DNA of 64,000 bases from Escherichia phage vB_EcoM_TH18. The stretch lies in sequence record ON075799. The stretch is one strand, 5' to 3'. The notes under the pieces were generated by a model. That model searched no databases. It worked only from the letters and a program-made list of their open reading frames with translations, and had not been told where the DNA came from. This document shows positions 18 through 41,092 of this stretch, one piece after another. Both the position numbers and the translations under genes were made by a program. Within the stretch, counting starts at the first letter, position 1, and each line of letters starts with the position of its first letter.

Positions 18-94
18 TGGTGTGACGGACAGGATTCGAACCTGTGACCACCTAGTCTTCAGCAAGGCACTCTACCAACTGAGTTACCGTCACA
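18..94 (-). tRNA. tRNA-Phe (anticodon GAA)
   Basis: Hand-folded cloverleaf on minus strand: 7-bp acceptor, D-stem actc/gagt, anticodon loop CTGAAGA, T-loop GGTTCGAATCC, CCA encoded. Confidence 0.75.
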
Positions 95-98
95 TAAT

Positions 99-175
99 TG
101 GTGGGCGATGAGGGACTCGAACCCCCAAAATTCAGGTTCTAAGCCTGACATGTATACCAATTCCATCAATCGCCC
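99..175 (-). tRNA. tRNA, anticodon UAG (Leu-like decoding) but short variable loop; atypical
   Basis: Minus strand: acceptor gggcgat/atcgccc, anticodon stem tcagg/cctga with loop CTTAGAA, T-arm with TTCGAGT loop, CCA encoded; type-I length (77 nt) despite Leu-type anticodon. Confidence 0.55.
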
Positions 176-189
176 ATCTATATTAACAG

Positions 190-381
190 TTATGGTTTTC
201 CACGATACACAGAAATAGTTTTCCCATTAGCATTGATAACATAAGCGGTCTGATCCTCAGACAAAAACACTTTTTGATCAATGCCGGAAATAGCTATAGA
301 CTTTTGATGAGCACAATACCCAACAATTTTCCCACAAAAAATTTGTTCATCATTTGGAGAGACGACTTTAACTGTTAACAT
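190..381 (-). CDS. hypothetical small protein (63 aa; ORF 190-462 trimmed to internal ATG)
   Basis: Internal ATG at 381 preceded by AGAGGA; the longer ORF would overlap tRNA-Pro. Confidence 0.4.
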   Translation of the reverse strand: MLTVKVVSPNDEQIFCGKIVGYCAHQKSIAISGIDQKVFLSEDQTAYVINANGKTISVYRGKP

Positions 382-423
382 GGTATCCTCTGTACATTTC
401 TGCTTTGATATGTTTATGTTTGT

Positions 424-501
424 TGGTCTGTCCGGTTGGATTTGAACCAACGACCTGGTCATCCCAAGTGACCCGCGCTACCCAAGCTGCGCTACGGACA
501 G
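424..501 (-). tRNA. tRNA-Pro (anticodon UGG)
   Basis: Minus strand: acceptor ctgtccg/cggacag, D-stem gcgc/gcgc, anticodon stem ggtca/tgacc loop CTTGGGA, T-loop TTCAAAT, CCA encoded. Confidence 0.75.
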
Positions 502-585
502 AGAAATGTAGATTTTAATTGTCCCAGAATCTACTAACTGGTATCGCTGGCTAGGTGATATCTGTGACTTGATTAAGTCAAGAAT

Positions 586-677
586 TGGCGGTTCCTGAAG
601 GATTCGAACCTTCGGTGGGGAGATTCATTCCCAACGGCTTAACAGGCCGTCACCATCGACCACTCGGTCAAAGAACC
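586..677 (-). tRNA. tRNA, type II-like (long variable arm), anticodon loop CTGTTAA (GUU?); identity uncertain
   Basis: Minus strand: acceptor ggttctt/aggaacc, anticodon stem acggc/gccgt, extra stem-loop ggga-atgaatc-tccc, T-arm gaagg-TTCGAAT-ccttc, CCA encoded; 92 nt. Confidence 0.5.
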
Positions 678-686
678 TGAATATTT

Positions 687-763
687 TGGTGGATCTGGTT
701 GGGGTCGAACCAACAATCTCTCGATTAAAAGTCGAGTGACTTAAACCATTTGGCTACAAATCC
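687..763 (-). tRNA. tRNA-Lys (anticodon UUU)
   Basis: Minus strand: acceptor ggatttg/cagatcc, anticodon stem ctcga/tcgag loop CTTTTAA, T-arm gttgg-TTCGACC-ccaac, CCA encoded. Confidence 0.7.
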
Positions 764-780
764 GTTAAATTATCTTTAAA

Positions 781-810
781 ATAGCTAATTACTCGCACAT
801 AATTAGCTAT
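781..810. repeat. perfect 10-bp-stem hairpin (atagctaatt / aattagctat) in inter-tRNA spacer
   Basis: Exact inverted repeat with 10-nt loop read directly from sequence. Confidence 0.6.
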
Positions 811-996
811 ACGCAACAACTCTCCAAGGAGAGCACACTAATGATCGATTACGATTATATGACTAAATTTAGACCATCATAAGTGTTTGGCTTACGCCAG
901 TAAAGAGCGGACTGCTCTGGGGTATCGGTAAGATGGTTGCAGCCATCTACCGAAAAATCACACCAAGCAACTAAACAAGCTACATTAAAGATAACT

Positions 997-1085
997 TGGA
1001 GGAGGCTGACAGAATCGAACTGTCACCATATCTCTACAGCGGGACTGGGTTCAAACCAGCTTGTGCACCATGCACCCCAGCCTCC
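997..1085 (-). tRNA. tRNA-Ser (anticodon UGA)
   Basis: Minus strand: acceptor ggaggct/agcctcc, anticodon loop TTTGAAC, long variable arm, T-arm gacag-TTCGATT-ctgtc, CCA encoded; 89 nt. Confidence 0.7.
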
Positions 1086-1156
1086 AAAGATAGCCTCTGC
1101 CGAGGATATACACCCAACAAAGGAGGCGCTCAGGTCAGAAGAAATCTGAGCCTTAA

Positions 1157-1250
1157 TGGAGGAAGATGCCAGACTTGAACTGGCACACCCATTTCTGGGT
1201 TACTATCTCCTTAGCAGGGAGATCCCTTACCAAATTAGGGTTAATCTTCC
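1157..1250 (-). tRNA. tRNA-Ser (anticodon GCU)
   Basis: Minus strand: acceptor ggaagat/atcttcc, anticodon stem tctcc/ggaga loop CTGCTAA, long variable arm, T-arm gccag-TTCAAGT-ctggc, CCA encoded. Confidence 0.7.
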
Positions 1251-1271
1251 AATACCTTAGTAATTAAAAAC

Positions 1272-1361
1272 TGGTGGAGAAGGAGAGAATCGAACTCTCA
1301 AGCCGTTTTACCAGTCAGCACATTTCCAATGTGCTTTCGTCGCCAATCGATTTGCTTCTCC
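1272..1361 (-). tRNA. tRNA-Ser (anticodon GGA)
   Basis: Minus strand: acceptor ggagaag/cttctcc, anticodon stem gcaca/tgtgc loop TTGGAAA, long variable arm, T-arm gagag-TTCGATT-ctctc, CCA encoded. Confidence 0.65.
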
Positions 1362-1370
1362 GTTTTAACT

Positions 1371-1446
1371 TGGCAGGGGATGGTTGATTCGAACAACCGA
1401 TCACGGGGTCAAAGCCCGTTGCATTAGGCCACTATGCTAATCCCCT
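1371..1446 (-). tRNA. tRNA-Gln (anticodon UUG)
   Basis: Minus strand: acceptor aggggat/atcccct, D-stem gcat/atgc, anticodon stem acggg/cccgt loop CTTTGAC, T-loop TTCGAAT, CCA encoded. Confidence 0.7.
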
Positions 1447-1452
1447 TTTGCA

Positions 1453-1527
1453 CGAGAGTGAGGAATAGAACCTCTTAGTCACTGGTTTTGGAGGCCAGCC
1501 TTCACCCAGTGAAGTTACGCTACTCTC
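1453..1527 (-). tRNA. tRNA-Trp (anticodon CCA)
   Basis: Minus strand: anticodon loop CTCCAAA, T-arm with TTCTATT loop, acceptor gagagt/actctc; CCA not encoded. Confidence 0.6.
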
Positions 1528-1535
1528 ATTAAAAA

Positions 1536-2093
1536 CTATTTTCGAAAAGGACTTATGAAAAATGCCAACATCACTCTCTCTCTTGAAAAAGCTCTGTCTT
1601 CAGGAACCACACTCTTCAGTTTCCAACCGACATAAATTCGCCAGTAAAATTGTTTTCCAAACAATCTAAAAGACGGGACAAACGCGAATACACCCCACGC
1701 ATTGTCATTCCACATCAACAAATAGCCTTGTTGGTTATCCTCCACATCAGAGCTTACATGGAGGTTTCCTTTCCACTTTGTCACAGATGTGATTTCACGT
1801 CCAAGTACGTGATAGGAGAAATTGTAGGCTTTATTTCTCCACAACCAAGCAACTCGTTGTAGGTAAACACCAAAACTTCCTATTTTACGGACTTCTTCCC
1901 ATCTCTCTATGTGTCCTCTATCACCGTCTATAGGATTATCATATGTCTCCATCCACCTGAAAATATAAGGCAGATGCCCTGTCTTCTCATTATAGAACGG
2001 AACAACAAAAGGAGCCAGAATAACACAGAGAACCGACATAACTGGGTCAAGAGGTGCTAACAGGATCCACGATAAATATTTTAAGTATCTCAT
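1536..2093 (-). CDS. hypothetical protein (185 aa, aromatic-rich, hydrophobic N-terminus)
   Basis: Long ORF between tRNA sub-clusters; no recognisable motif. Confidence 0.5.
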   Translation of the reverse strand: MRYLKYLSWILLAPLDPVMSVLCVILAPFVVPFYNEKTGHLPYIFRWMETYDNPIDGDRGHIERWEEVRKIGSFGVYLQRVAWLWRNKAYNFSYHVLGREITSVTKWKGNLHVSSDVEDNQQGYLLMWNDNAWGVFAFVPSFRLFGKQFYWRIYVGWKLKSVVPEDRAFSRERVMLAFFISPFRK

Positions 2094-2320
2094 GCAGGAT
2101 CAAGCCTAGATATAATGTACTGGTTTAAATCTGAATATGGGAAGATACTTTCAAAGATAACCTGTTTAAATCTGAAGCCGCACAAACCGAAAAGTACCTT
2201 CTGACACTCACCAAAAGAGCAATCTTTACCAACTTTTATCACAACCGTATCGGCAATCTGCACACTTTCTATCTCTTTAGATTCATGATGCCGTACTATG
2301 ATTACTTTAGAAACCATCAT
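2090..2320 (-). CDS. hypothetical protein (76 aa)
   Basis: ORF whose stop overlaps the start of the downstream gene by 4 bp (translational coupling pattern). Confidence 0.4.
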   Translation of the reverse strand: MMVSKVIIVRHHESKEIESVQIADTVVIKVGKDCSFGECQKVLFGLCGFRFKQVIFESIFPYSDLNQYIISRLDPA

Positions 2321-2445
2321 ACTCGTCCATATTAAAGCCTTCTACTAAAGATAGTAGATGTCTAGGGTTGGACCGCAAACGCAACCCCATGGAATTTGTT
2401 ACGGTCTTCAGTTGACCCAAGCGGATTTCATTGACATCTTTTAAC

Positions 2446-2520
2446 TGGAGCATCCAGAGGGTATCGAACCCTCGACTTCAGCTTGGAAGGCTGTAGTTTT
2501 CCCAATTAAACTATGGATGC
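2446..2520 (-). tRNA. tRNA-Gly (anticodon UCC)
   Basis: Minus strand: acceptor gcatcca/tggatgc, D-stem gttt/aaac, anticodon loop CTTCCAA, T-arm gaggg-TTCGATA-ccctc, CCA encoded. Confidence 0.7.
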
Positions 2521-2525
2521 ATATT

Positions 2526-2601
2526 TGGTGGGAGTGGTAGGCTCTGCCCCTACGTCCTCTCGATTATCGGTCGAGCGATCTACTAACTGATCTACACTCC
2601 C
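2526..2601 (-). tRNA. tRNA-Ile-like (anticodon GAU), atypical T-loop
   Basis: Minus strand: acceptor gggagtg/cactccc, D-stem gatc/gatc, anticodon stem ctcga/tcgag loop CCGATAA, T-stem gtagg/cctac but loop GGCAGAG lacks TTC; CCA encoded. Confidence 0.5.
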
Positions 2602-2665
2602 AAACTGTACTGGCCCAACAACCACGATTGGAGGGTATCGTCACACATCAAAGCCAGTACAGTTT
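2602..2665. repeat. 13-bp-stem hairpin (aaactgtactggc / gccagtacagttt, 38-nt loop) filling the spacer between two tRNAs
   Basis: Exact inverted repeat read from sequence; no T-loop, so not a tRNA. Confidence 0.55.
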
Positions 2666-2669
2666 TAGT

Positions 2670-2759
2670 TGGTGTGCCGTGATAGAGTCGAACTACCCGA
2701 GTCCCTTTCGAGACAGGAGATTTACAGTCTCCCCCGCTACCCCTACGGTCTAACGACAC
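2670..2759 (-). tRNA. tRNA-Tyr (anticodon GUA), type II
   Basis: Minus strand: acceptor gtgtcgt/acggcac (one G-U), anticodon stem ggaga/tctcc loop CTGTAAA, long variable region, T-arm ggtag-TTCGACT-ctatc, CCA encoded; D-arm irregular. Confidence 0.6.
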
Positions 2760-2760
2760 A

Positions 2761-3108
2761 TTAACCTTGTTTGAATTGAACAATATCCGTCGAGAACGGT
2801 TTAGCTGCCTTAATAGGTGCTTTTTCTGAGTTATCTTTTTCGAGTAACTCTTCGTTTTCCTCATCAAAGTAATCAGAAAGCATCTGCTCACCTTTCTCAA
2901 TAACATAACGAGCTATATTTTCTCTGATATTGTCTTTTGTATTCACATTCTTCATCAAATCCCTAAGAACCTGATGAGCTTCAGGAATCATTGCAATCAG
3001 ATTCGTTTTTAAATCTAGGATATTTTTCTCTAACTGAATTGCATTAGATTCCTCTTTCAGAGGACGACCTTTTCCTCTTCTACGTTTTGTAAGCTGCTTA
3101 GTAGCCAT
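2761..3108 (-). CDS. hypothetical protein (115 aa from internal ATG; acidic C-terminal half)
   Basis: ORF 2761-3333 trimmed to the Met at 3108 because the upstream part overlaps tRNA-Cys. Confidence 0.45.
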   Translation of the reverse strand: MATKQLTKRRRGKGRPLKEESNAIQLEKNILDLKTNLIAMIPEAHQVLRDLMKNVNTKDNIRENIARYVIEKGEQMLSDYFDEENEELLEKDNSEKAPIKAAKPFSTDIVQFKQG

Positions 3109-3193
3109 TTTAAAACCCCACTTAATGATATTATCAAATAAAAACATATCTGTCAAGTGGTATTTTAACATATTTACCAAGAAATTGAAAGTT

Positions 3194-3270
3194 TGGAGCA
3201 CGGTGTCGGACTTGAACCGACATATATCTGTTTTGCAGACAGATCCGTAACCAAATTCCAGCAACCGTGC
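3194..3270 (-). tRNA. tRNA-Cys (anticodon GCA)
   Basis: Minus strand: acceptor gcacggt/accgtgc, anticodon stem tctgt/acaga loop CTGCAAA, T-arm with TTCAAGT loop, CCA encoded. Confidence 0.7.
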
Positions 3271-3356
3271 AATAAGTACCCCAGGTAGAGAACCTATAGA
3301 GTGGGTCTTACGAGCCGCGCTGACGATTCTCAAGTTGGGGTTAATCTGGTCGAGGA

Positions 3357-3433
3357 GACAGGATTCGAACCTGTGACCTACGGCTTAGAAGGCCGCTGCT
3401 CTATCCAACTGAGCTACACCCCGAAAATAAGAA
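3357..3433 (-). tRNA. tRNA-Arg (anticodon UCU)
   Basis: Minus strand: canonical D-arm tagctcagttggatagagc, anticodon stem gcggc/gccgt loop CTTCTAA, T-arm acagg-TTCGAAT-cctgt, CCA encoded. Confidence 0.7.
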
Positions 3434-3623
3434 TGCTTTATAGTGTATGGTTACTCAACCTCACTCCAACTTCCACAGTTGGTGCTCTACGAGCATGACT
3501 ACGTTTGAAATCAACGTTGCGCACCGATAGCTTTCTCACGCATTGTATGCCTCATTCCCAACAAATGCTGATCAGACATTTATATCGAATAATATAAGCT
3601 AATACACTATAAAACAAACTTGT

Positions 3624-3720
3624 GGCTGGGTGATGGAATCGAACCACCTATGTATTCAACGGCTTCCCCGTCTATTTTCAGGATTATAAATCCTCGCCCT
3701 TGCCAAAGGGCTTACCCAGC
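3624..3720 (-). tRNA. tRNA-like gene, unusually long (about 97 nt); anticodon loop TTTATAA (UAU?) with about 30-nt insertion before the T-arm
   Basis: Minus strand: acceptor gctgggt/acccagc, D-stem gccc/gggc, 4-bp anticodon stem agga/tcct, extra hairpin acgg-ggaag-ccgt, T-arm ggtgg-TTCGATT-ccatc; CCA not encoded. Confidence 0.4.
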
Positions 3721-3722
3721 AT

Positions 3723-3797
3723 TGGTGCTCGCAGCAGGTTTCGAACCTGCAACCCCCTGCTTACAAGGCAGGTGCTCTACCGTTGAGCTATACGAGC
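3723..3797 (-). tRNA. tRNA-Thr (anticodon UGU)
   Basis: Minus strand: acceptor gctcgta/tgcgagc, D-stem gctc/gagc, anticodon stem cctgc/gcagg loop CTTGTAA, T-arm gcagg-TTCGAAA-cctgc, CCA encoded. Confidence 0.75.
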
Positions 3798-4162
3798 AAT
3801 AAGACATTGCTTCCGATTAACAGCCTTGAGGCTTTACAGACCATATCTTGTGAGCCATAACCTGTGCCAAGGATTTCAGATGATAAACGAAATTTTATCT
3901 TTCAAGAGTCAACTTTCAAGTTTCATCTTTTACATTTAACCATTGACCTTTATTGTATGAACTTTTACTTAGTGGAAACAACAAGGCATCTTCGTGTGCC
4001 TCGCTGCATCTATGTCCTGTATTATCCTCATACATATACGATACATGGTGGGGGATATTTAACCTCCAACCCCCAGGAGGCAAGATGATGTAAACTTCGT
4101 TAATCAAAAGCAATGTTTTAAATTTCAAAACAAAGGAACGATAATGATATTATCAGAGCCTT

Positions 4163-4810
4163 TTAGAGAGAGTGCTCAATCTCAATTTCTGTCTTAGCGT
4201 TTGACTCAGACAACGCAAAATCAACGTTAGACAAGAAATCTTCAATCTCTTCTTCAAGAGAACGAATCTTAGAAGCCAGTTCAAGAGGATCCACAACCGA
4301 TGGTGTGTTCATCATTCGAATAGGAGCTTCCACAGTCTTAATCTGCTCTGCATCTGGCGCTTTATCACGTTGGATATATGGCGCTCTTGCATTTTCAAGT
4401 TTATCTTCCAGAGATTTTTCTTCTTTTGCCAGAAGAAGCTGTGCAGAAGCACGCTGTGCACAAAGTTTGTTTAACAACTCTTGTTTAAAGCAAATCGTCC
4501 GTTTGCGTTCGATTGCCTCAGCAACTGTCATAGACACATTACCAATTTTGACAATTGTCTCAGCATTAGACTTAACAATTTTTGCTTTCAGTTCATCACG
4601 CACTGCCAAGAGGTCTTGCAGACTTTGATAGTCGTTGATCGCAGATTTCTTAAAATCATCAACAGAGCCGATATAACCCGGAATCTTACAATTATTCTCA
4701 GTTCCTTTTGCAATCTTAATACAATCAAGATTGTAGATACGCTTATTGATCTTATCTTCAATTTTAGAGATAGAAGCAAGTGCACGAGTTACGGAAATCT
4801 TAGTAGACAT
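4163..4810 (-). CDS. hypothetical protein (215 aa, predicted coiled-coil, K/E-rich)
   Basis: Long ORF; composition only. Confidence 0.55.
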   Translation of the reverse strand: MSTKISVTRALASISKIEDKINKRIYNLDCIKIAKGTENNCKIPGYIGSVDDFKKSAINDYQSLQDLLAVRDELKAKIVKSNAETIVKIGNVSMTVAEAIERKRTICFKQELLNKLCAQRASAQLLLAKEEKSLEDKLENARAPYIQRDKAPDAEQIKTVEAPIRMMNTPSVVDPLELASKIRSLEEEIEDFLSNVDFALSESNAKTEIEIEHSL

Positions 4811-4883
4811 GCGATCTCTCCTATGTAAATCAGCTTTGATAAAGTAACTATCCAGAAAAACAAAAACTATGTCAAGAAAAATT

Positions 4884-5075
4884 TTAATCTTTTACAGCAT
4901 CTTTTATAGAATCACAAAGATCTTGAACAACATCAGATGTCGGTGACAAAATCATCTCGTCGGCTGCTGCTATAGCATCTGATGCTAAATCAACAAACGG
5001 AGTTGTTACCGCAGAAGTCACTTCAACAGCCGTTATTGTTACTTCGCTTGCAATCTTAAGCAAAGATCCTATCAT
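4884..5075 (-). CDS. hypothetical protein (63 aa)
   Basis: Small ORF downstream of the tRNA-Met gene. Confidence 0.3.
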   Translation of the reverse strand: MIGSLLKIASEVTITAVEVTSAVTTPFVDLASDAIAAADEMILSPTSDVVQDLCDSIKDAVKD

Positions 5076-5151
5076 AATCTCAACCCTCCTGAATATCCGT
5101 GATTCCCTTTATTTAACGACGCTGGCTCACGGTGGCACTCTCGTCAATAAA

Positions 5152-5475
5152 CTATTTTTTAGTTTTCTTACCGTTTTCTACAGAAATGCTTGTTTTCTGT
5201 TTCGCTTCTCGTTCGCGCTTTGTTTTCCCAGTGCGAATACGATATGAAGCAGAAATAACTTCACCACCAATGACACGAGACACAGATTCGTAATACATTT
5301 CAGTATTACCGTCTTCATCTTTGCGTTTTTTCAGAACTGCTACAGTTTGCGTTTTACCACCAAGGCGCACATCGTGCGGTGCAGAATGTGTCTGCGTGGA
5401 TTTTGATCCAAACTGAAAAGGTTGCTTTATCGCCTCGATAGCTGACACCTTTTTAGCAGACTGTTTCTTAGCCAT
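5152..5475 (-). CDS. hypothetical basic protein (107 aa from internal ATG, Lys-rich)
   Basis: Internal ATG at 5475 preceded by GGAGG; Lys-rich termini. Confidence 0.45.
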   Translation of the reverse strand: MAKKQSAKKVSAIEAIKQPFQFGSKSTQTHSAPHDVRLGGKTQTVAVLKKRKDEDGNTEMYYESVSRVIGGEVISASYRIRTGKTKREREAKQKTSISVENGKKTKK

Positions 5476-5527
5476 TAAGTTTTCTCCTCCGAAAACAATA
5501 AACATAGTTTATTTCGTGTGCCACATT

Positions 5528-5604
5528 TGGTGGCCCCTGCTGGACTTGAACCAGCGACCAAGCGATTATGAGTCACCTGCTCTATCCAACTGAGCTAAGG
5601 GGCC
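5528..5604 (-). tRNA. tRNA-Met (anticodon CAU; elongator-type or Ile2-type)
   Basis: Minus strand: acceptor ggcccct/aggggcc (G1-C72 paired), canonical D-arm, anticodon loop CTCATAA, T-arm gctgg-TTCAAGT-ccagc, CCA encoded. Confidence 0.7.
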
Positions 5605-6253: not shown

Positions 6254-6460
6254 TTAAACTATTCCAAAAGCCTTGACACCACGCTCGTATTCTGCTACTG
6301 CAAGCTCATGAGGAGAAAGGTCACATGAGGCATCCTTGCAAAGACCGACTTCGATGTAATGTTCTTCTAGTCCATCAAGGATATCTGGCTCCCACGCTTT
6401 TTTCATGTCTGGATGGACTGATGCACGATTTCTATCGTACTTCGCTACGAGATTTCTCAA
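6254..6460 (-). CDS. hypothetical protein (68 aa)
   Basis: Small ORF just downstream of the NAMPT gene on the same strand. Confidence 0.35.
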   Translation of the reverse strand: MRNLVAKYDRNRASVHPDMKKAWEPDILDGLEEHYIEVGLCKDASCDLSPHELAVAEYERGVKAFGIV

Positions 6461-6513
6461 AACATTCTCCTCAAAATAAAAACCCCTCCATGTGGAGGGG
6501 AATGATTATGGTG

Positions 6514-8229
6514 TTAAAGCTGTGATAAGGCTCTTTGGCGAATTTCTTCAAGATCCTCATCCACAAGCAGCTTACCATTAACAAAAACTGTTCTAAGCTC
6601 GTTATCATGGTCAGATACTTGGTTAATACCAAGATTATCTACCAGCTTCAACTCGCCATCATCACCACGAATAACTTTAACAAAACCTTTCGCAGATTTC
6701 TTCCCAAGATCAGTCTTAGGCTCTTTTACGACCATTACTTGTCTGCCATCAATCACAGCACCAGTAGCTTTTACAGCCATCCCAAGAGAATCACGGGTTG
6801 TATATTGCGTTGTATAAGACCCTACACCAAACACAATGTTACTGGAAGCAAACCCTCGTTCTTCAAGGCGCTCAAAGATCTCTTTAGCACGGGAGATTGT
6901 GATAGAGTCTCCGTAGATTAAACCAACATGGCTATCAAGAACTTTGTAACCCAAAGAGTTTACACTACCACCAAAGATTTCCCACAAGCATTGTACAGCA
7001 CCCTTAACTTCCTCTTTTGTCAGATAATTTGTAAATTCATCACCTGTCAAAGATTTCCAATCTACGAGGTTGCCTTCCGAATCTCGCATCCATGAAGTGT
7101 CTCTGGACATCTCGTATAAAGTGACATATTTGCCATTTTTAAACAGCACAGCATCCATGTCACAGCACTGCCCCGTTGCCCATTCTTCCTGAGAGCACAC
7201 GCGATAACCAGCAATGATGTGCTCTGGGATCCCACTGTCAGGTCGGAAGACCAGCTTGCCATCACGAGACATAATCTCATCTTTCAGGATTTTTGCTGCC
7301 TGTGTAATGATTGCCCAAAAATCATAGCTGTCAGCGACGTATGAAGCATAACCTGATGGGAAAATCTCTGTCACATAACGCTTTAAGAACTCAACTTCAG
7401 CACGAAAACGTGCTTCATCAAGCGGCATATCAGGATTTTCCTGCTGGATACGCTCAACAATAAAACCAATGTTCGTTGTCGCTACGCTATGCTCAGATGC
7501 GGGAATAGACCCAGCAACAAAGCGACCTTTCATGTTGTAATAGCGATTTGCGTAAACAATCGCTGGAATTGTATCTGTGCCCATTGAGCTAATCAGTTGC
7601 CCAAATTCGCTCTGTGCTGCGTCATGTGTTCCAGCTTCACCACGGTATGCAAAACAATGGTTCTGGAAAGGAACATGATCGTTGTTATCACATGTTTTCT
7701 TTGCCCACAGTTCTGATAGTTTACGGTATTGCCAGAAAGTCGTTGCCGTGGTAATTGTCTTCCAAGTCTCCGATGAGATCACGCTCTCAAGGAAGTTCGG
7801 CAGCCAGTAAAAATCAGGATGCGTGTTCTGAATCGTGAACATGGGAACCTGAACAGGAACAAGAGTTCCTTCAGGCAAAGCCCTAATTTCAATTGGGAGA
7901 TAACCAAGGTCATGCAATTTCTCAAAACCCCAAGTTTCAACAGCATCCTTCCCAATGCTCAAATCACAAATCTCTTTGTAATCCTGAATCGCCTTTTCTT
8001 TCGGTAAAGCGAAGAAATTATTATTAAACATGTCGATCAGGAACCACTTGATAAATCCCTGAAGACCTGCAAACATCACACGATGGTCATCATCTGCAAA
8101 GTGTACAAAGTGTTTCACATTGCGTGGGGTCATGTTGTCTTGAACAAACTGTGAACGTCTATCGTACATCGAGATGTGACTTGGTTTATAAAAATCTGCG
8201 AACAGCAATGGACTTTCTTTGTGAAGCAT
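6514..8229 (-). CDS. nadV: nicotinamide phosphoribosyltransferase (NAMPT/NadV-like)
   Basis: 571-aa ORF; remembered NAMPT-family signatures including the RPDSG motif and GSYT segment. Confidence 0.8.
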   Translation of the reverse strand: MLHKESPLLFADFYKPSHISMYDRRSQFVQDNMTPRNVKHFVHFADDDHRVMFAGLQGFIKWFLIDMFNNNFFALPKEKAIQDYKEICDLSIGKDAVETWGFEKLHDLGYLPIEIRALPEGTLVPVQVPMFTIQNTHPDFYWLPNFLESVISSETWKTITTATTFWQYRKLSELWAKKTCDNNDHVPFQNHCFAYRGEAGTHDAAQSEFGQLISSMGTDTIPAIVYANRYYNMKGRFVAGSIPASEHSVATTNIGFIVERIQQENPDMPLDEARFRAEVEFLKRYVTEIFPSGYASYVADSYDFWAIITQAAKILKDEIMSRDGKLVFRPDSGIPEHIIAGYRVCSQEEWATGQCCDMDAVLFKNGKYVTLYEMSRDTSWMRDSEGNLVDWKSLTGDEFTNYLTKEEVKGAVQCLWEIFGGSVNSLGYKVLDSHVGLIYGDSITISRAKEIFERLEERGFASSNIVFGVGSYTTQYTTRDSLGMAVKATGAVIDGRQVMVVKEPKTDLGKKSAKGFVKVIRGDDGELKLVDNLGINQVSDHDNELRTVFVNGKLLVDEDLEEIRQRALSQL

Positions 8230-8292
8230 GATCTCAACCCTCCAACCTAAAAGCGTATTTTTTCACTAAAACGTATCTTTGTCAAGATGTAA

Positions 8293-9102
8293 TTAAAAAT
8301 TTTCTGTCCAGTCGTAGTACGCATAGATTTCGTCAACGCCACCGTTGAGAATAAATTCTTTCCCACGAGAGAAAATCCCATGCGTGACATACAAGATAAC
8401 ACGTTTAGCACCAGCAGCTTTCAAGGCTTGAGCTAAGTTTGTAAACGTAAACCCACCATCGCAGATATCATCAACAATCAGGCACATCTTCCCATCGACA
8501 TCACCAAACACTGTTGTGCCTGTGATTGCCCCTGTTCCCACATCACGGATTTTACCAGCTTCAACCACAGATAGTTCCAAGGCATCAGCTACCTTCTGGG
8601 TCTTCTTGCGTGCACCTGCATCTGGAGCAACCAACACAAGCGATTCGTCCGTAAGCAGATCAAAATCAAACTTCATGTTCAAGAACAATTCAGTCTGAGA
8701 ACGAATTTTCACGTTATCAAGCAGTGCTGCGGATACGTCACTGTGTGGGTCATCGACGATGACTTTGTGGAAACCCAGCGAGTTAATCATTGTGGCAAAG
8801 ACTTTCACCGACAGAGCTTCACCAGGGTTCATAACTCGGTCTTGTCGAGCATACGGGATGTACGGCAGGTGTAAAACCTTTTCCACACCAACATCCAAAT
8901 TGCCAAGACGATTGACTGCATCAACAAGCAACGCAAGACACATCACATCTTGGGAGTGCTTAATGCGAGCGAAGATATCCACAAAACCAATCGAACCCTT
9001 AGGGATATAGTGCATATCGATCTTCACCTGCTCCTCACCACCACTGAAGGTAAAATGGTCAACTGGAACATGCAACTTGTTCAAACTCAAACGAATATTC
9101 AT
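8293..9102 (-). CDS. prs: ribose-phosphate pyrophosphokinase-like (PRPP synthetase)
   Basis: 269 aa; PRPP-binding loop VDDICDGGFTF (type I phosphoribosyltransferase fold); next to NAMPT. Confidence 0.75.
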   Translation of the reverse strand: MNIRLSLNKLHVPVDHFTFSGGEEQVKIDMHYIPKGSIGFVDIFARIKHSQDVMCLALLVDAVNRLGNLDVGVEKVLHLPYIPYARQDRVMNPGEALSVKVFATMINSLGFHKVIVDDPHSDVSAALLDNVKIRSQTELFLNMKFDFDLLTDESLVLVAPDAGARKKTQKVADALELSVVEAGKIRDVGTGAITGTTVFGDVDGKMCLIVDDICDGGFTFTNLAQALKAAGAKRVILYVTHGIFSRGKEFILNGGVDEIYAYYDWTENF

Positions 9103-9500
9103 GATTTATCTCCTCTAGCACGATTGACGATAATATAATTTCTTGGTTTCACGTTACCATCAGAATCCTGAAATCCTGATCTGACACGCCTGACATAACC
9201 AAAGCTCTCCATCCGAGACAGAAATTCAGACACTTTGGTTCGTGAGTTTTCGTTCCACCCCAACAGACCACACAAGGATTGCTGTGACGGAAAGAATACC
9301 AGTTCCCCACCCAAGGGGTTCCGACTCTTGAAATACTCGTATCTCCACAACAAGCGTATCAGTCTTTGCAGATCGCTTGGTGATAACCGTTCATCAAAAA
9401 CCCACTCTGTCGGCACAGCGATGTACGACCCAGCTTTCGGATTTACATGGAAACCCCCAACATTCGATTTCAAGGCAAACTCCGGTGTGTAATTCAACAC
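9099..9500 (-). CDS. hypothetical protein (133 aa), first gene of the leftward operon
   Basis: ORF whose stop overlaps the prs start by 4 bp; sits immediately left of the AT-rich control region. Confidence 0.5.
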   Translation of the reverse strand: MLNYTPEFALKSNVGGFHVNPKAGSYIAVPTEWVFDERLSPSDLQRLIRLLWRYEYFKSRNPLGGELVFFPSQQSLCGLLGWNENSRTKVSEFLSRMESFGYVRRVRSGFQDSDGNVKPRNYIIVNRARGDKS

Positions 9501-9540
9501 CGAGAATGCTACTCATAACACCACACAATGTCAACCCCTC

Positions 9541-9859
9541 CCATATGTCCCCATTTCAGGGACATTATGATCTAATATAATATATATTATATAATATAAT
9601 TTAATATAATACTACGTATTATATATATTATAATATATATATATAATTTATATAAAATACACTAAGTCTTGAAGAATGTCAAGACTTGATTTTAAATATT
9701 TTTGTTGATATGATTCGATTGAGTCGAATCGTATGGTTCGATGATTTCGAATCATAGAGTTCATGTTGTTTTGCCTGAAATCGTGAGTCGATGAGACTCT
9801 TCAGGCAATACGTGAGTGTGTAAGATGCTCACTGCGCTGATAGCTTGTGATCATCTAAC
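9541..9859. promoter_or_regulatory. divergent intergenic control region: about 80-bp near-pure A/T tract (9585-9660) plus short palindromes and TCGA-containing repeats
   Basis: Composition and repeats read directly; lies between the leftward (tRNA/NAD) and rightward (small-gene) transcription units. Confidence 0.5.
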
Positions 9860-15014: not shown

Positions 15015-15227
15015 ATGGCTAATATTCGCACCTTGTTAAAAAATGCAAAGCAAGTTTTATTTTCCGATCACGATTATTTCAATAAAGACATTACAGGCGT
15101 AAAGAATATCAAAGACGTAAAAAATGTCATGGGTATCTATTGCAATATGAAGCGAGTAGGCACATTTGGCAATAAAGTATTATATCAGGCAGGTGACTAT
15201 AATTTTACTTTGACAATTATTTCATAA
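15015..15227 (+). CDS. hypothetical protein (70 aa)
   Basis: AGGAG ribosome-binding site; preceded by hairpin gacgggga-actgc-tccccgtc. Confidence 0.5.
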   Translation: MANIRTLLKNAKQVLFSDHDYFNKDITGVKNIKDVKNVMGIYCNMKRVGTFGNKVLYQAGDYNFTLTIIS

Positions 15228-28686: not shown

Positions 28687-29490
28687 TTATTCAAAATCAT
28701 CAACACCACTATCGGTAAGGTTTTCTCTGCTTGAAGGTTTTGTCGAAAGAACTTGCTCAAGCAGAGAGGAAAATTTCTGCAAATTACTTACAGAAGAAGT
28801 ACCTGCTGCCATGGCAAGCATATCCACTTCTTTTTCGGTAGGTTGAGCCCAGTCTAGAAACATCTCTTTCATGTACAACGTTGATGACCCTATTGGTGTG
28901 GCGAGGTCAACCCTATCAGCATAGATCCAGAAAAGAACCTCTTTCTCTATACATACACACAAAGCAGCACCCAACGAGTATCCTGTAACGATGGATGGAT
29001 ATCTTGCAACGAGGATCTCGACATTCAGGTCATCCCAGTGAAATACAACACCCAAATACTTCATACCCACAATGTCTTCCACTGCGGGTTTTAGCTCCTC
29101 ATGGGAAGAAAGGGAGTCATAGTTAATATTCTTTATGAATTTAAGAACGTCTTGGCGGTTGTAGGCACAATCGTTATCACCTTGCTTCCAATAACCCCAA
29201 AATGAAGTCGATAAATTCAACCAAAAACTTGCAGTTGTCCCTAATGTCTCAGCCAGTTTTTCAGCCACATCTTCTGATACTTCTTCCATGTTATAAAGGA
29301 TGGTTCTCAACTTATTTACCGGTATACCAGATTTGTCGGCAAGATCATCCACACACCAACCTAATGGATCTAGATATTCGTGGATAATAACCTCACCTGG
29401 TGATACTGGTGCTCTTTCTTTTAACATTCTTGCTCCTCTATCTATATCAGAAAACCCTGCAAAGCAGCAGGGTTCTGTCACTCTTAACAC
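28687..29490 (-). CDS. HigA/XRE-type helix-turn-helix domain protein with about 170-aa C-terminal domain of unknown function
   Basis: N-terminal segment SPGEVIIHEYLDPLGW...IPVNKLRTILYN...AEKLAETLGTTASFWLNLST matches the remembered HigA-antitoxin helix-turn-helix pattern. Confidence 0.55.
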   Translation of the reverse strand: MLRVTEPCCFAGFSDIDRGARMLKERAPVSPGEVIIHEYLDPLGWCVDDLADKSGIPVNKLRTILYNMEEVSEDVAEKLAETLGTTASFWLNLSTSFWGYWKQGDNDCAYNRQDVLKFIKNINYDSLSSHEELKPAVEDIVGMKYLGVVFHWDDLNVEILVARYPSIVTGYSLGAALCVCIEKEVLFWIYADRVDLATPIGSSTLYMKEMFLDWAQPTEKEVDMLAMAAGTSSVSNLQKFSSLLEQVLSTKPSSRENLTDSGVDDFE

Positions 29491-29687
29491 TTAGGTGAGC
29501 ATTTATCGCACGAACATGAAATTCCGTGGAAACACAATCCTGTCCCGTCTTTCTTGACCCCTGTTCCACCACACTGGGGACAACTATCGTGTAAACATTT
29601 TGTTTTTGTTGTCTCCTCTTTATCTTTATTAAAGAGGTTTTTCATAATCATTTTCTGTTGTTCAATCGTAAACATTTGCGTCCCCAA
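29484..29687 (-). CDS. Cys-rich small protein (67 aa, zinc-finger-like)
   Basis: C-x2-C and repeated Cys pairs (CPQCGG ... CFHGISCSCDKCSPKC). Confidence 0.45.
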   Translation of the reverse strand: MGTQMFTIEQQKMIMKNLFNKDKEETTKTKCLHDSCPQCGGTGVKKDGTGLCFHGISCSCDKCSPKC

Positions 29688-29968
29688 AATCTTTCAAGTG
29701 CTTCTGCCTCTTCCATGTTCGGGAAGATACCGTAGAAACAGAACTTACCTTTAGAGAAGTACGGAATAAATACCCGCCCATCACTGGTTTCAAACATCTT
29801 ATCAAAATTTGGTAGCTTCAGGTGTGATTTTATAGCCTCTTTAATACTTTTATCCCATTGATGCTGCCATTTACAGGCTTTTAGGTATTCACTAATATTG
29901 TAAGAACCTACTCTCCTCAAAATACTGGTGAGAAACTTTTTGTTTTTACGAATAATCTTCTTTTTCAC
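29648..29968 (-). CDS. hypothetical protein (106 aa); paralog of 29946-30251
   Basis: Shares N-terminal MKKK(I/L)xRxNKxFL(T/S) with the adjacent gene. Confidence 0.5.
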   Translation of the reverse strand: MKKKIIRKNKKFLTSILRRVGSYNISEYLKACKWQHQWDKSIKEAIKSHLKLPNFDKMFETSDGRVFIPYFSKGKFCFYGIFPNMEEAEALERFWGRKCLRLNNRK

Positions 29969-30251
29969 TCAAAAGCCTCATTTCTTCAAACTGCTCTGGT
30001 GTCAATAAACTTGTTCCTACACGACTGCCATTACCACACATAAGAGGTACGGCAATCATATGGCTATCCTTTTCTGCATTACCTAAATCAAGGTACTCCC
30101 CATAACGTTTGATAAGTCGAATGCTCATTTTTGAATTAGCTAAAGCCCTTGTGTTATAGAGATAATCCTCAAGGTACAAATGTAGATCGTTTGCCACCTT
30201 TAAAGATTTTGATAAGAATAATTTATTACGCCGTGCCAGTTTTTTCTTCAT
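29946..30251 (-). CDS. hypothetical protein (101 aa); paralog of 29648-29968
   Basis: Tandem duplicate by N-terminal similarity. Confidence 0.5.
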   Translation of the reverse strand: MKKKLARRNKLFLSKSLKVANDLHLYLEDYLYNTRALANSKMSIRLIKRYGEYLDLGNAEKDSHMIAVPLMCGNGSRVGTSLLTPEQFEEMRLLSEKEDYS

Positions 30252-30444
30252 ACACCCCTCGCTTGTGCCTGTACATTGCCAGAGGCCATACAGAACTCAC
30301 TATAAAGCATTTCCATGCCCAACCCCATGCAGTTTTTGGTGCATAGACCTGTTCAAGTGTTTTACTATTCTCCATCTCTGCGGTATGCACAAACCATACC
30401 GCAATATACAATGTAACTGTAATGTAGATAAAGCTATTAATCAT
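30226..30444 (-). CDS. small membrane protein (72 aa)
   Basis: Hydrophobic segments. Confidence 0.4.
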   Translation of the reverse strand: MINSFIYITVTLYIAVWFVHTAEMENSKTLEQVYAPKTAWGWAWKCFIVSSVWPLAMYRHKRGVYEEKTGTA

Positions 30445-31857: not shown

Positions 31858-31858
31858 T

Positions 31859-32203: not shown

Positions 32204-32267
32204 AATCCACTTAACCTTCGAATGTTAACCTCTCCTATTCTATCAGAGAGGTTTCAAAAATGATCTA

Positions 32268-33291: not shown

Positions 33292-33305
33292 ATATTCATA
33301 CCTCT

Positions 33306-34873: not shown

Positions 34874-34908
34874 ATAAAGAAAAACCCGCTAAAAAGCGGG
34901 TTAATCTC

Positions 34909-37108: not shown

Positions 37109-37114
37109 TGTCCC

Positions 37115-38039: not shown

Positions 38040-38047
38040 AAACCCCC

Positions 38048-38833: not shown

Positions 38834-38845
38834 CAGAGGGTCTCC

Positions 38846-39550: not shown

Positions 39551-39565
39551 TTTCCCTCTTCTGTG

Positions 39566-40993: not shown

Positions 40994-41092
40994 TGGTTGA
41001 TGAAACGAGTTTGTCAGATAATCTCTTTCGATTAATCCTGGGTATGCTTCTTTAAGTTTTGTGGCAAATTTATAACACAGAGATTCTGCCGA

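Follow-up and report, generated by a model that had tools for sequence, protein, structure and literature searches.

The locus considered here is a three-gene unit on the minus strand of an Avunavirus (Vequintavirinae) coliphage, and it was analysed within a 64-kb stretch of DNA that we refer to as the window. Between positions 6483 and 9534, a small open reading frame (ORF133) is followed by a gene for a Prs-like protein (adps) and a gene for a NAMPT-like protein (namat), and we can say with high confidence that these make up a NARP1 (NAD+ reconstitution pathway 1) operon (Table 1). The initial annotation had already described the NAMPT-like and PRPP-synthetase-like genes as adjacent and phage-encoded and had recognised a Sir2-family gene elsewhere in the window. 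These observations stand: the three ORFs lie at the stated coordinates, all on the minus strand (a point the initial annotation did not give), the NAMPT-like and Prs-like ORFs are intact, and the Sir2 assignment is borne out by Pfam.

Table 1. Features of the NARP1 locus and of the Sir2 cassette, with positions in the window.
Feature	Position	Strand	Basis or remark
Intrinsic-terminator-like hairpin and T-run	6483..6500 (6500->6483)	-	CCCCTCCACATGGAGGGG then TTTTTATTTT
namat, NAMPT-like, 571 aa	6514..8229	-	Pfam, PHROG and PDB profile matches
adps-namat spacer, 63 nt	8230..8292	-	GGAGGG Shine-Dalgarno ahead of namat ATG
adps, Prs-like, 269 aa	8293..9102	-	Pfam, PHROG and reference-protein comparisons
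ORF133	9099..9500	-	Small protein, possible winged-helix DNA-binding
Promoter-like site, sigma-70 type	9506..9534 (9534->9506)	-	TTGACA-17-TAGCAT, consensus scan, pattern match only
MazG-like (PRA-PH)	57809-58498	-	Sir2 cassette
ATP-dependent DNA ligase	58892-60181		Sir2 cassette
Sir2-family protein, 261 aa	60174..60959	-	Pfam SIR2 PF02146, E 1.6e-25
AAA_33 kinase	60968-61375	-	Sir2 cassette
cREC (cREC_REC)	61386-61718	-	Sir2 cassette
Rnl1-like RNA ligase (RNA_lig_T4_1)	61715-62647	-	Sir2 cassette
Metallophos	62866-63444	-	Sir2 cassette

The putative promoter lies 5′ of the three genes and borders an AT-rich divergent control region (~9540-9720). The ORF133 stop codon and the start of adps share 4 nt (ATGA), and the true start codon of this ORF is probably downstream of 9500. 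A consensus scan of the spacer between adps and namat found a weak promoter-like site (8285->8257), and no terminator-like site was found between the two genes; a strong terminator-like hairpin begins 14 nt past the namat stop and is probably the 3′ end of the operon. Co-transcription of adps and namat, which had been asserted from the outset, is plausible, since the genes share a strand, only 63 nt separate them, no terminator intervenes, and the hairpin follows namat. Both genes are under purifying selection, with omega values relative to Av-05 of 0.055 for namat and 0.13 for adps. The same arrangement, with adps directly ahead of namat on the same strand, is also found in SPbetaL1, ICP1, Felixounavirus Alf5, PD06, CR8, and VLCpiM5a. 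Natural Adps-Namat fusions also appear to exist, as the single profile PHROG 12872 has one half that matches Adps and another that matches Namat.

The 269-aa protein is predicted to be an Adps that catalyses the reaction ADPR + ATP -> ADPR-PP + AMP. It exceeds the Pfam cut-offs for Pribosyltran_N, Pribosyltran, and Pribosyl_synth, which points to a PRPS-like two-domain fold, and it matches PHROG 619 (E 7e-92). Its identity is 41.8% to the verified Adps of ICP1 (E 3e-49, 154 bits), 42.9% to that of Bas63 (E 2e-48, 152 bits), and 34% to that of SPbetaL1 (E 3e-24, 89 bits), compared with 28% to E. coli Prs (E 1e-21, 82 bits). Of the Prs models, only the broad subfamily model TIGR01251 accepts it, at 147 bits where E. 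coli Prs obtains 423; every more specific model rejects it, and it reaches none of the NCBIfam Prs equivalog cut-offs. For instance, it scores 121 bits with NF002320, the E. coli-type Prs model, for which the cut-off is 297 and E. coli Prs scores 533. Its placement in the Adps subfamily is supported by its being closer to verified Adps than to E. coli Prs and by the presence of namat 63 nt downstream. The margin is slight for the SPbetaL1 enzyme, which reaches 89 bits against the 82 of E. coli Prs.

The residues to which roles have been attributed in Adps (PMC13586617; Osterman 2024, bioRxiv 10.1101/2024.02.11.579819) are present. The catalytic hairpin lysine is K184, equivalent to K185 in ICP1 and K162 in SPbetaL1, within the motif K-I-R-D-V-G-T-G-A-I; the acceptor residues R86, H120, D161, D211, D212, and D215 correspond to R87, H121, D161, D212, D213, and D216 in ICP1; and F19 is also found. 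The PP loop, the element of Adps that holds the ATP donor, reads DDICDGGFT, and its DDICDG portion is common to the window protein, ICP1, Bas63, PD06, and CR8, whereas E. coli Prs has DDMIDT. The alignment ends ~45 residues short of E. coli Prs, and the protein has no C-terminal alpha11-alpha12 module; according to the structure paper (PMC13586617), loss of this PRPS module is a defining signature of the Adps family. The ICP1 enzyme, for which crystal and cryo-EM structures are available in that paper, shares with the window protein 42% identity, the conserved active residues, DDICDG, and the missing module. The two differ at the end of the loop, where the three residues past DDICDG are GFT in the window, AAS in ICP1, and GRT in Bas63 (the SPbetaL1 PP loop is SSFGGT), so that three of six residues in CDGGFT and CDGAAS do not match. 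They also differ at the adenine-contacting F92 and F223 of ICP1, which are M91 and N222 in the window and are unconserved in Bas63 and SPbetaL1 as well.

For the 571-aa protein, the predicted identity is Namat and the predicted reaction ADPR-PP + nicotinamide -> NAD+ + PPi. It matches the Pfam family NAPRTase PF04095 (E 2e-28) and PHROG 448 (E 9e-195) and passes the PRK09198 cut-off, but its best structural matches are 9W5X/9W5W (E 1e-124, 420 bits), the crystal structures of SPbetaL1 Namat (PMC12774641), against at most 181 bits (~1e-49) for true NAMPTs from Xanthomonas and human and 31% identity (E 1e-33) for KVP40-like NadV. The catalytic core and NAD+ contacts listed for Namat (PMC12774641), among them the phospho-histidine and the residues that bind nicotinamide and ribose phosphate, are intact, comprising D12, Y14, F193, R196, D219, A244, H247, R329, D331, G440, D441, G470, S471, R479, and D480. 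The clamp helix reads GS-Y472-T-T474-Q-Y476-T-TRD, which conforms to the Namat-specific motif GSX-Phi-X-Phi-X-Phi-TRD of the literature and places tyrosines at motif positions 3 and 7, both of them adenine-stacking, whereas the same site in the KVP40-like NadV of VH7D reads GGGLLQQLDRD. Position 5 is Thr across the Vequintavirinae clade, while the published description has it as most often aromatic. The loop of the selectivity clamp is said to require Arg, Lys, or Tyr as its third residue and, if this is Lys or Tyr, a following residue that stacks; in the window protein, K39 aligns with R40 of SPbetaL1 and K42 of the Bas63 type and is followed by H40-F41. At the residue level, the two proteins belong to the Adps and Namat subfamilies.

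Some features of this Namat are unusual. The Vequintavirinae clade departs in three ways from all references compared: the HDF motif ahead of F193 has become HCF, with Cys for Asp; motif position 5 is Thr and not the usual aromatic; and GIPE takes the place of GDPV after RPDS. These odd substitutions are kept in three genera, down to 66% identity, and lie off the listed ligand contacts. Among solved structures, 9KE8 ranks second in closeness (E 1e-107) and is without the aromatic clamp pair. Since 9KE8 is similar overall and yet clamp-less, similarity by itself is no proof of ADPR-PP specificity. Namat also keeps a NAMPT side activity in vitro, at about half that of human NAMPT (PMC12774641; bioRxiv 10.1101/2024.02.11.579819).

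Escherichia phages 18-1-2 and 24-2-1 match the window DNA at 100% identity and Av-05 at 94%, and the supplementary tables of Osterman 2024 include the Prs-like and the NAMPT-like protein of each of the three. In Table S1, the Prs/Adps homologue is marked "Namat within 10 genes: Yes", and in Table S2, the NAMPT-like protein is classed as "Adps-associated" and not "Nmnat-associated". The same study began with the Pfam-based prediction that Prs and NAMPT would make NMN. Nevertheless, the Prs-like enzyme of SPbetaL1 pyrophosphorylated ADP-ribose, whereas its ribose-5-phosphate/PRPP control reaction yielded nothing measurable, and the NAMPT-like enzyme was found to favour ADPR-PP over PRPP and to form NAD+ directly. 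Osterman et al. found no phage that carries NARP1 and NARP2 together.

The closest parallel is the NARP1 of Bas63 (JohannRWettstein, Felixounavirus; genes 79-80), in which a lytic coliphage carries the same two-gene adps->namat operon under equally misleading Pfam labels. Both phages have a long-form Namat of ~570-590 aa, which shares two insertions when compared with SPbetaL1, a clamp loop made of Lys plus the following residue, aromatics at positions 3 and 7 of the clamp helix, and the Adps loop DDICDGG. However, identity is only ~42-43% in both proteins, and Bas63 belongs to another phage subfamily; the window Namat has HCF for HDF and, at motif position 5, Thr, the candidate for stacking in its clamp loop is His40 or Phe41 where Bas63 has Trp, and the window operon has the translationally coupled ORF133 upstream. 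Moreover, the function of the Bas63 operon has been proven genetically and metabolomically, whereas that of the window operon is predicted. With SPbetaL1, the window shares the full set of Namat residues that catalyse or touch NAD+ and the Adps lysine (K162 = K184), but the SPbetaL1 Namat has 491 aa, the window protein being ~80 residues longer through two insertions, the SPbetaL1 clamp loop uses Arg40 directly, and the SPbetaL1 Adps differs in the PP loop and in overall sequence, as noted above. The ICP1 Namat, as annotated in the record examined, is shorter (439 aa).

Two further systems share part of this chemistry. NARP2, composed of the NAMPT NadV of KVP40 and the bifunctional NMNAT/Nudix protein NatV, also uses a NAMPT-fold enzyme and nicotinamide for phage NAD+ reconstitution and is the route envisaged in the initial annotation, but it proceeds through PRPP and NMN, requires an NMNAT, and has GGGLLQ in the clamp helix; the 64-kb window holds no NMNAT, and its clamp region is of the Namat type. 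NARP1-AP of Vibrio phage Gary (Adps, Adpp, and Namat; bioRxiv 10.64898/2026.01.28.702374) has the Adps and Namat core chemistry, but its third gene encodes a Macro-domain ADPR-1''-phosphate phosphatase that allows escape from aRES, whereas the third gene here is the wHTH-like ORF133, and a Macro domain is absent from the operon and from the rest of the window. ADPR-1''-phosphate is no substrate of NARP1 without a dedicated phosphatase. The operon is therefore a basic NARP1 lacking the phosphatase Adpp, and because of this no rescue would be expected from an aRES-type defence, which produces ADPR-1''-phosphate.

Judged by sequence, the adps-namat pair is the standard, already published NARP1 route, which is complete with two genes. 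In the proposed mechanism, a host defence with a SIR2, TIR, or SEFIR effector would split NAD+ into ADP-ribose and nicotinamide, Adps would move the beta,gamma-pyrophosphate of ATP to the 1'' hydroxyl of ADP-ribose to form ADPR-PP, and Namat would let nicotinamide displace the pyrophosphate of ADPR-PP, giving NAD+ directly. An NMN intermediate, an NMN adenylyltransferase, and host salvage enzymes would all be unneeded. We infer both reactions and the counter-defence phenotype from Bas63 in vivo and from SPbetaL1, ICP1, and FADO in vitro or in vivo, and the assignment of the two proteins rests on 34-46% identity to characterised homologues. It is very likely that the pair serves NAD+ reconstitution against NAD+-depleting defences, a role that the initial annotation had anticipated. 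The same annotation had seen in the pair the first half of a route and had recognised no NMNAT. The latter observation was correct, as the profile search of neighbouring ORFs for NMNAT or Nudix was empty across the window, but since NARP1 makes NAD+ directly from ADPR-PP, the missing NMNAT is no gap, and the description as half a route has to be abandoned. More broadly, no match to CTP_transf_like, NUDIX, Macro, or RyR was found within the 64-kb window, for which Pfam was run on 105 of the 121 called ORFs (E 0.001) and targeted scans on the ORFs of the operon and of the Sir2 cassette (E 0.01), all three family lists being complete; the window covers 64 kb, and the whole genome should reach at least ~120 kb (120,938 bp in Av-05).

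The Sir2-family protein has E. coli CobB as its closest solved structure (E 2e-19) and contains the GAG, TTNVD, and HG motifs, although it has only one Cys at the site of the Zn-ribbon tetrad, falls under all CobB equivalog cut-offs, and has no defence-SIR2 match in PADLOC. Its gene lies 51 kb from the NARP1 operon. Iyer et al. (2022, PMC9503650 section 3.7.3) described, as a computational prediction, a sirtuin phage RNA-repair neighbourhood of the rV5/Mydo type, and the window gene is likewise flanked by genes for a T4-like RNA ligase, cREC, a nucleotide kinase, a MazG pyrophosphatase, and a calcineurin-like phosphoesterase, so that the sirtuin type 2 neighbourhood is found within 57809-63444 on one strand. 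That system is predicted to perform a KptA-like removal of RNA 2'-phosphates and is unrelated to NARP1 in sequence and position. Because the sirtuin belongs to this previously described cassette, a functional link between Sir2 and NARP1 is unproven. At the genus level, the host profiles of Sir2 and Adps carriers are strongly different: Sir2 records come mostly from Escherichia, Salmonella, and Klebsiella phages, the matches listed being mainly T5-like, rV5-like, phAPEC8-like, and jumbo phages, while among the Adps records there are large groups from Staphylococcus, Pseudomonas, Vibrio, Mycobacterium, and Bacillus.

Other readings of the operon have to be weighed against NARP1. One of them builds on the reaction originally proposed: the pair would act as genuine PRPP synthetase and NAMPT and make NMN from nicotinamide, ATP, and ribose-5-phosphate, and host NadR, the host PncC route, or an unrecognised phage NMNAT would finish NAD+. 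This agrees with the names given by Pfam, PHROG, NCBIfam, and GenBank, with the TIGR01251 (Prs-like) and PRK09198 (NAMPT-like) cut-offs being passed, and with the fact that Namat homologues still convert PRPP to NMN in vitro. We nevertheless consider it highly improbable. The NMN prediction did not survive testing on the homologous Bas63 and SPbetaL1 operons, where rescue holds in delta-pncC delta-nadR hosts and where Namat, when given both donors, yields NAD+ only, Adps giving no product in the ribose-5-phosphate/PRPP control (bioRxiv 10.1101/2024.02.11.579819). The window proteins carry the signatures of the Adps and Namat subfamilies and not those of Prs and NAMPT; the Prs equivalog cut-offs are failed, the C-terminal regulatory and filament module of Prs is absent, no NMNAT is found in the window, and the class in Osterman 2024 is the Adps-associated one.

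It is also very unlikely that, in this lineage, the NARP1 chemistry mainly salvages nicotinamide and ADP-ribose-type by-products released by the NAD+-consuming sirtuin cassette of the phage itself, which would close an NAD+ cycle within the phage and make action against host NADases secondary. The window does encode the sirtuin together with cREC, the calcineurin-like phosphoesterase, MazG, the kinase, and the RNA ligase, this cassette is predicted to consume NAD+ and to release nicotinamide and ADPr>P (PMC9503650), and in the related Klebsiella phage K54_rec1 this cassette sits ~2 kb from the NARP1 operon, in divergent orientation. Here, however, the modules are 51 kb apart, the genera of their carriers differ, the NAD+ cost of mending a few tRNAs would be stoichiometrically small, ADPR-1''-phosphate would need a phosphatase and there is no Macro-domain Adpp, and, in Bas63, ADPR-PP was seen solely in the presence of a host defence system (bioRxiv 10.1101/2024.02.11.579819). 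That adps and namat are decaying or non-functional remnants has a negligible probability: the clade-specific HCF for HDF and the Thr at clamp-motif position 5 could be taken as signs of decay, but the frames are full-length, the published catalytic and contact residues are present on alignment in both enzymes, the omega values are low, and the substitutions persist across genera. NARP1 directed against host defences thus remains the preferred reading.

ORF133 matches PHROG 8453 (E 1e-52), a family of unknown function, and weakly HTH_Crp_2 (E 0.002), and a comparison of its profile with the PDB returned only sub-threshold wHTH regulators (E 0.35-0.9). Its omega relative to Av-05 is 0.19. This is probably a lineage-specific small DNA-binding protein, which is kept beside NARP1 in several Vequintavirinae and is no known NARP1 component. 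A broader scheme, which we think very unlikely, would make Vequintavirinae NARP1 one arm of a larger phage NAD+/ADP-ribose economy. A sirtuin without the zinc ribbon would spend NAD+ on healing nuclease-cut tRNAs together with cREC, the phosphoesterase, MazG, the kinase, and the RNA ligase; cREC and the phosphoesterase would turn ADPr>P into ADP-ribose; Adps and Namat would rebuild NAD+ from that ADP-ribose and the freed nicotinamide; and the translationally coupled, wHTH-like ORF133 would act as the lineage-specific regulator of the operon. Homologues of ORF133 are found in 73 phage records, and those of Av-05, CR8, K54_rec1, Hena1, phiTE, and KP13-16 lie beside or near NARP1 genes.

The two ORFs that the initial annotation had read as a NAMPT and a PRPP-synthetase-like enzyme are intact and adjacent at the coordinates that it had given, both on the minus strand, as judged by ORF reading and Pfam. 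It was also right in its broader theme, NAD+ reconstitution by a phage in response to NAD+-depleting immunity. The mechanism that it proposed, in which PRPP is used to make NMN as the first half of a route with a missing NMN adenylyltransferase (NMNAT), is wrong: the enzymes carry the signatures of Adps and Namat, and NARP1, the pathway formed by these two, is complete with two genes. We consider it very probable that what is encoded here is a NARP1 operon of an Avunavirus phage, complete and in the basic form, with the enzyme activities being predicted. For phage Bas63, labels of the same kind ("Prs + NAMPT") mispredicted the chemistry and were the starting point of Osterman et al. (bioRxiv 10.1101/2024.02.11.579819). 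The Prs-like enzyme of SPbetaL1 gave no measurable product in a ribose-5-phosphate/PRPP control, pyrophosphorylated ADP-ribose and was named Adps, and ADPR-pyrophosphate (ADPR-PP) accumulates in infected cells (bioRxiv 10.1101/2024.02.11.579819). The NAMPT-like enzyme, named Namat, favours ADPR-PP over PRPP and converts it with nicotinamide to NAD+, so that two genes suffice and an NMNAT is unnecessary (bioRxiv 10.1101/2024.02.11.579819). Namat homologues retain a NAMPT side activity in vitro (PMC12774641).

Pfam identifies all three ribose-phosphate pyrophosphokinase domains in the 269-aa product of adps, and the PHROGs label of this protein is "ribose-phosphate pyrophosphokinase" (E 7e-92). 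It is 41.8% identical to ICP1 Adps (E 3e-49), for which ADPR-PP-forming activity and structures have been published (PMC13586617), 42.9% to Bas63 Adps (phage record MZ501086.1; protein sequence taken from the tables of Osterman et al.), 34% to SPbetaL1 Adps, and 28% to E. coli Prs. The catalytic hairpin lysine K184 corresponds to K185 in ICP1 and K162 in SPbetaL1, the acceptor residues R86, H120, D161, D211, D212, and D215 are present, and the PP loop begins DDICDG. All phage homologues aligned share the hairpin K-x-R-[DN]-x-x-T-[GN]-x-I; that of E. coli Prs is KRRPRANVSQV. Furthermore, the protein stops about 45 residues short of the end of E. coli Prs and lacks the alpha11-alpha12 module, whose absence is a defining Adps signature according to the structure paper (PMC13586617). 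In NCBIfam, it passes the broad TIGR01251 subfamily model alone, with 147 bits (423 for E. coli Prs), and fails every more specific Prs model, such as NF002320 (121 bits, with a cut-off of 297).

The 571-aa product of namat has a NAPRTase/NAMPT-family domain in Pfam and is labelled "nicotinamide phosphoribosyl transferase" in PHROGs (E 9e-195). Against all PDB sequences, its top matches were 9W5X and 9W5W (E 1e-124, 420 bits), which are SPbetaL1 Namat with nicotinamide and with NAD+ according to the depositors' paper (PMC12774641), and the true NAMPTs of Xanthomonas and mammals reached at most 181 bits. All the NAD+-contact and catalytic residues listed in PMC12774641 are conserved (D12, Y14, F193, R196, D219, A244, H247, R329, D331, G440, D441, G470, S471, R479, and D480). 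Missing active-site residues, which the initial annotation had proposed as grounds for refutation, were thus found neither here nor in Adps, where the lysine and the acceptor residues are all in place. The Namat signature at the adenine-clamp helix, GSX-Phi-X-Phi-X-Phi-TRD (the clamp motif), reads GS-Y-T-T-Q-Y-T-TRD, whereas the KVP40-like NadV, a NAMPT of the NARP2 type (NAMPT plus NMNAT, via PRPP and NMN) with 31% overall identity, has GGGLLQQLDRD at this site. In the variable clamp loop, Lys39 aligns with Arg40 of SPbetaL1 and is followed by His-Phe, which would correspond to the Bas63-type "Lys plus following residue".

The Vequintavirinae clade of Namat has some substitutions of its own, namely C192 (HCF) where every other compared homologue has HDF, T474 at the fifth clamp-motif position, which is usually aromatic, and GIPE where GDPV is found elsewhere. 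These are kept across Avunavirus, Mydovirus, and Certrevirus, with HCF and the threonine occurring in Av-05, VLCpiM5a (Mydovirus), and CR8 (Certrevirus), and such stability across three genera excludes, as far as sequence can tell, that they reflect decay. The second-best PDB match, 9KE8/9KEO (E 1e-107), is deposited as a "nicotinamide phosphoribosyltransferase", and its clamp helix, GAQTYQRNTRD, departs from the Namat and NAMPT patterns alike. A comparison with the phage collection gave no source phage (best match about 65% identity), a literature search found no paper describing these entries, and they may represent an intermediate cellular subgroup. Given their overall similarity and off-pattern clamp, overall similarity alone is insufficient for assigning specificity. 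We call the protein Namat because of its clamp motif, its Adps partner, and its published classification, which was taken by accession from the lists of Osterman et al.

Of the 121 ORFs called in the window, 105 were scanned with Pfam in three batches (E 0.001), and those of the operon and the Sir2 cassette by targeted domain scans (E 0.01). At these thresholds and with untruncated family lists, no NMNAT (CTP_transf_like), Nudix, Macro, or RyR domain was found in the window ORFs, nor were NARP3 components of the PnuC- or NadR-type families. The initial annotation had likewise recognised no NMNAT in the window, and this absence, which it took for a gap in the pathway, is consistent with a self-sufficient NARP1. 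An extended pathway, NARP1-AP, also includes Adpp, a Macro-domain ADPR-1''-phosphate phosphatase that gives phages escape from the aRES defence (bioRxiv 10.64898/2026.01.28.702374); we reject it for the window operon because no Macro domain was found in the scans.

The genes of the operon have no terminator-like site between them, and co-transcription of ORF133, adps, and namat is therefore plausible. TTGACA-N17 sites recur ahead of several small minus-strand ORFs (9534, 8285, 6253, 5653, and 4875).

Features of the predicted NARP1 operon, its flanks, and the sirtuin cassette
Feature	Coordinates	Strand	Remarks
Control region, divergent, very AT-rich	about 9540-9720		long TATATA-type tracts
Perfect 9-10 bp hairpin	9663-9688		AAGTCTTGA...TCAAGACTT; overlaps TTGACA promoter-like hexamers on both strands
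Sigma-70-like site	9534->9506	(-)	pattern match
ORF133, 133 aa	9099-9500	(-)	
adps	8293-9102	(-)	ATG overlaps ORF133 stop (ATGA); GGAG 8 nt upstream
adps-namat spacer, 63 nt		(-)	GGAGGG Shine-Dalgarno and weak promoter-like site
namat	6514-8229	(-)	last gene, 3' of the 63-nt spacer
G+C-rich hairpin then T-run	6500->6483	(-)	begins 14 nt past namat stop codon
Array of 15 tRNA genes	18-5604	(-)	same strand, directly downstream of the terminator-like hairpin of NARP1; small ORFs interspersed
Metallophos, calcineurin-like phosphoesterase	62866-63444	(-)	
Rnl1-like RNA ligase	61715-62647	(-)	
cREC	61386-61718	(-)	
AAA_33 P-loop kinase	60968-61375	(-)	
Sir2	60174-60959	(-)	PF02146
ATP-dependent DNA ligase	58892-60181	(-)	
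123-aa ORF	58508-58879	(-)	
MazG-like pyrophosphatase	57809-58498	(-)	

The DNA from 6400 to 9565 is 100% identical to that of Escherichia phages 18-1-2 and 24-2-1 (the latter's record, a scaffold annotated with RAST, stops at the NARP1 operon and leaves the rest of the window uncovered) and 94% identical to that of Av-05, a member of Avunavirus, Vequintavirinae. Klebsiella phage K18PH07C1 was left out, as its feature table is seemingly out of register with the match. Relative to Av-05, namat has an omega, our measure of selection, of 0.055 and adps one of 0.13. In the tables of Osterman et al., rows OK136180_00122, OK181861_00001, and KM190144_00031 of Table S1 are marked "Namat within 10 genes: Yes", and rows OK136180_00121, OK181861_00002, and KM190144_00030 of Table S2 are "Adps-associated", not "Nmnat-associated". 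The NARP1 proteins of the window are already catalogued by accession in the discovery paper of the pathway, and the locus is ordinary for its phage group. The order adps-namat is common to SPbetaL1, ICP1, the Felixounavirus Alf5 (the genus of Bas63), PD06, CR8, and VLCpiM5a. In addition, the N-terminal half of PHROG 12872 (547 positions) resembles the window Adps and its C-terminal half the window Namat; thus, natural Adps-Namat fusion proteins appear to exist in some phages.

ORF133 belongs to PHROG 8453, a family with no assigned function, and has homologues in some 73 phage records that come almost entirely from Vequintavirinae relatives; in several of these records, they adjoin or lie near the NARP1 genes. 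Nothing significant was found for it in Pfam, NCBIfam, or PADLOC, and a profile of four sequences (one of which, VLCpiM5a M5a_00108, is 21% identical and possibly no true homologue) gave only sub-threshold wHTH matches in the PDB, with winged-helix matches being weak elsewhere too. We regard ORF133 as a neighbour specific to this lineage, perhaps a small DNA-binding protein, rather than as a NARP1 component. In Klebsiella phage K54_rec1, an additional gene is inserted between the ORF133 homologue and adps; we considered it as a Macro-domain Adpp and rejected this, given that the protein consists of wHTH and T5orf172 (homing-endonuclease-like).

The Sir2-family protein reported by the initial annotation is also present, with 261 aa and a PF02146 match (E 1.6e-25). 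Its best solved match is E. coli CobB (E 2e-19). The GAG, TTNVD, and catalytic HG motifs are present, a single Cys takes the place of the four-Cys zinc ribbon of sirtuins, and the protein scores under all CobB equivalog cut-offs. A captured defence SIR2 of the ThsA, DSR, or HerA type is rejected, as the PADLOC defence SIR2 models gave no match and the best matches are CobB-like sirtuins. The gene is part of a cassette lying on one strand (57809-63444, minus) that corresponds to the rV5/Mydo type of RNA-repair neighbourhood predicted by Iyer et al. 2022 (PMC9503650). The prototypes of this neighbourhood are phage rV5 and Proteus phage Mydo, and its sirtuin is predicted to be KptA/Tpt1-like, stripping 2'-phosphates from RNA in tRNA repair (PMC9503650, section 3.7.3).

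The initial annotation had suggested that this sirtuin could be functionally linked to the NAMPT-like and Prs-like pair. Sir2 carriers comprise about 998 phage records, with a predominance of Escherichia, Salmonella, and Klebsiella phages (among the matches listed, mostly T5-like, rV5-like, phAPEC8-like, and jumbo phages, including the NARP2 phage VH7D), whereas Adps carriers comprise about 1,511 records with large Staphylococcus, Pseudomonas, Vibrio, Mycobacterium, and Bacillus groups. Given these different profiles, which compare carrier genera, there is no sign of an obligate association. A looser link is favoured by one point, K54_rec1 (PQ569687.1, 86000-102000), where the NARP1 operon and the same Sir2 cassette lie side by side in divergent orientation with about 2 kb between them, compared with 51 kb in the window. 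It is conceivable, but unsupported, that sirtuin by-products are recycled to NAD+ via NARP1; ADPR-1''-phosphate is no NARP1 substrate without a dedicated phosphatase.

The value of these findings is corrective, as Pfam, PHROG, NCBIfam, and GenBank labels still imply the wrong chemistry, with "ribose-phosphate pyrophosphokinase" and "nicotinamide phosphoribosyltransferase" in use. A search of NCBIfam release 20.0 (June 2026) gave no match to any model named Adps or Namat, and the window Namat passes the "nicotinate phosphoribosyltransferase" equivalog PRK09198, as does true phage NadV. Since Adps is caught by TIGR01251 and Namat by PRK09198, automated annotation will keep mislabelling NARP1 genes. 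Where Prs-like and NAMPT-like genes are adjacent in a phage, the pair is therefore best taken for a complete NARP1, except where the clamp motif and an NMNAT gene point to another reading. Nothing new is added to the biology of the pathway, but there are testable predictions for the Avunavirus lineage. The window phage is predicted to resist SIR2-HerA, DSR1/2, type I Thoeris, and SEFIR defences and, because it has no Adpp, to be sensitive to aRES, which would be relevant to host-range choice for O157-targeting phages such as Av-05.

Some observations concern the rest of the window. The tRNA array comprises Phe, Leu, Pro, Asn, Lys, three Ser, Gln, Gly, Tyr, Cys, Arg, Thr, and Met, and tRNA genes are likewise found 3' of NARP1 in VLCpiM5a and CR8. 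A minus-strand block of nucleotide and RNA metabolism (28687-47697) encodes aerobic (large and small subunits) and anaerobic (NrdD and activase) ribonucleotide reductases, glutaredoxin, PhoH, a Clp protease, a chitinase-class lysozyme, a CCA-adding/poly(A)-polymerase-type nucleotidyltransferase with an HD domain, and the RNA-repair nucleotidyltransferase RlaP. By position and matching length, 15015-15227 (plus strand) corresponds to Av05_0027, annotated in the Av-05 RefSeq record as a 70-aa "phosphoribosylpyrophosphate synthetase"; a Pfam scan of the window ORFs around it found no phosphoribosyltransferase-type families, and the label looks like a misannotation. The Av-05 RefSeq record is collinear with the window in part, with tail(-fibre) genes midway where the window keeps nucleotide-metabolism genes, pointing to a rearrangement or to a difference in assembly.
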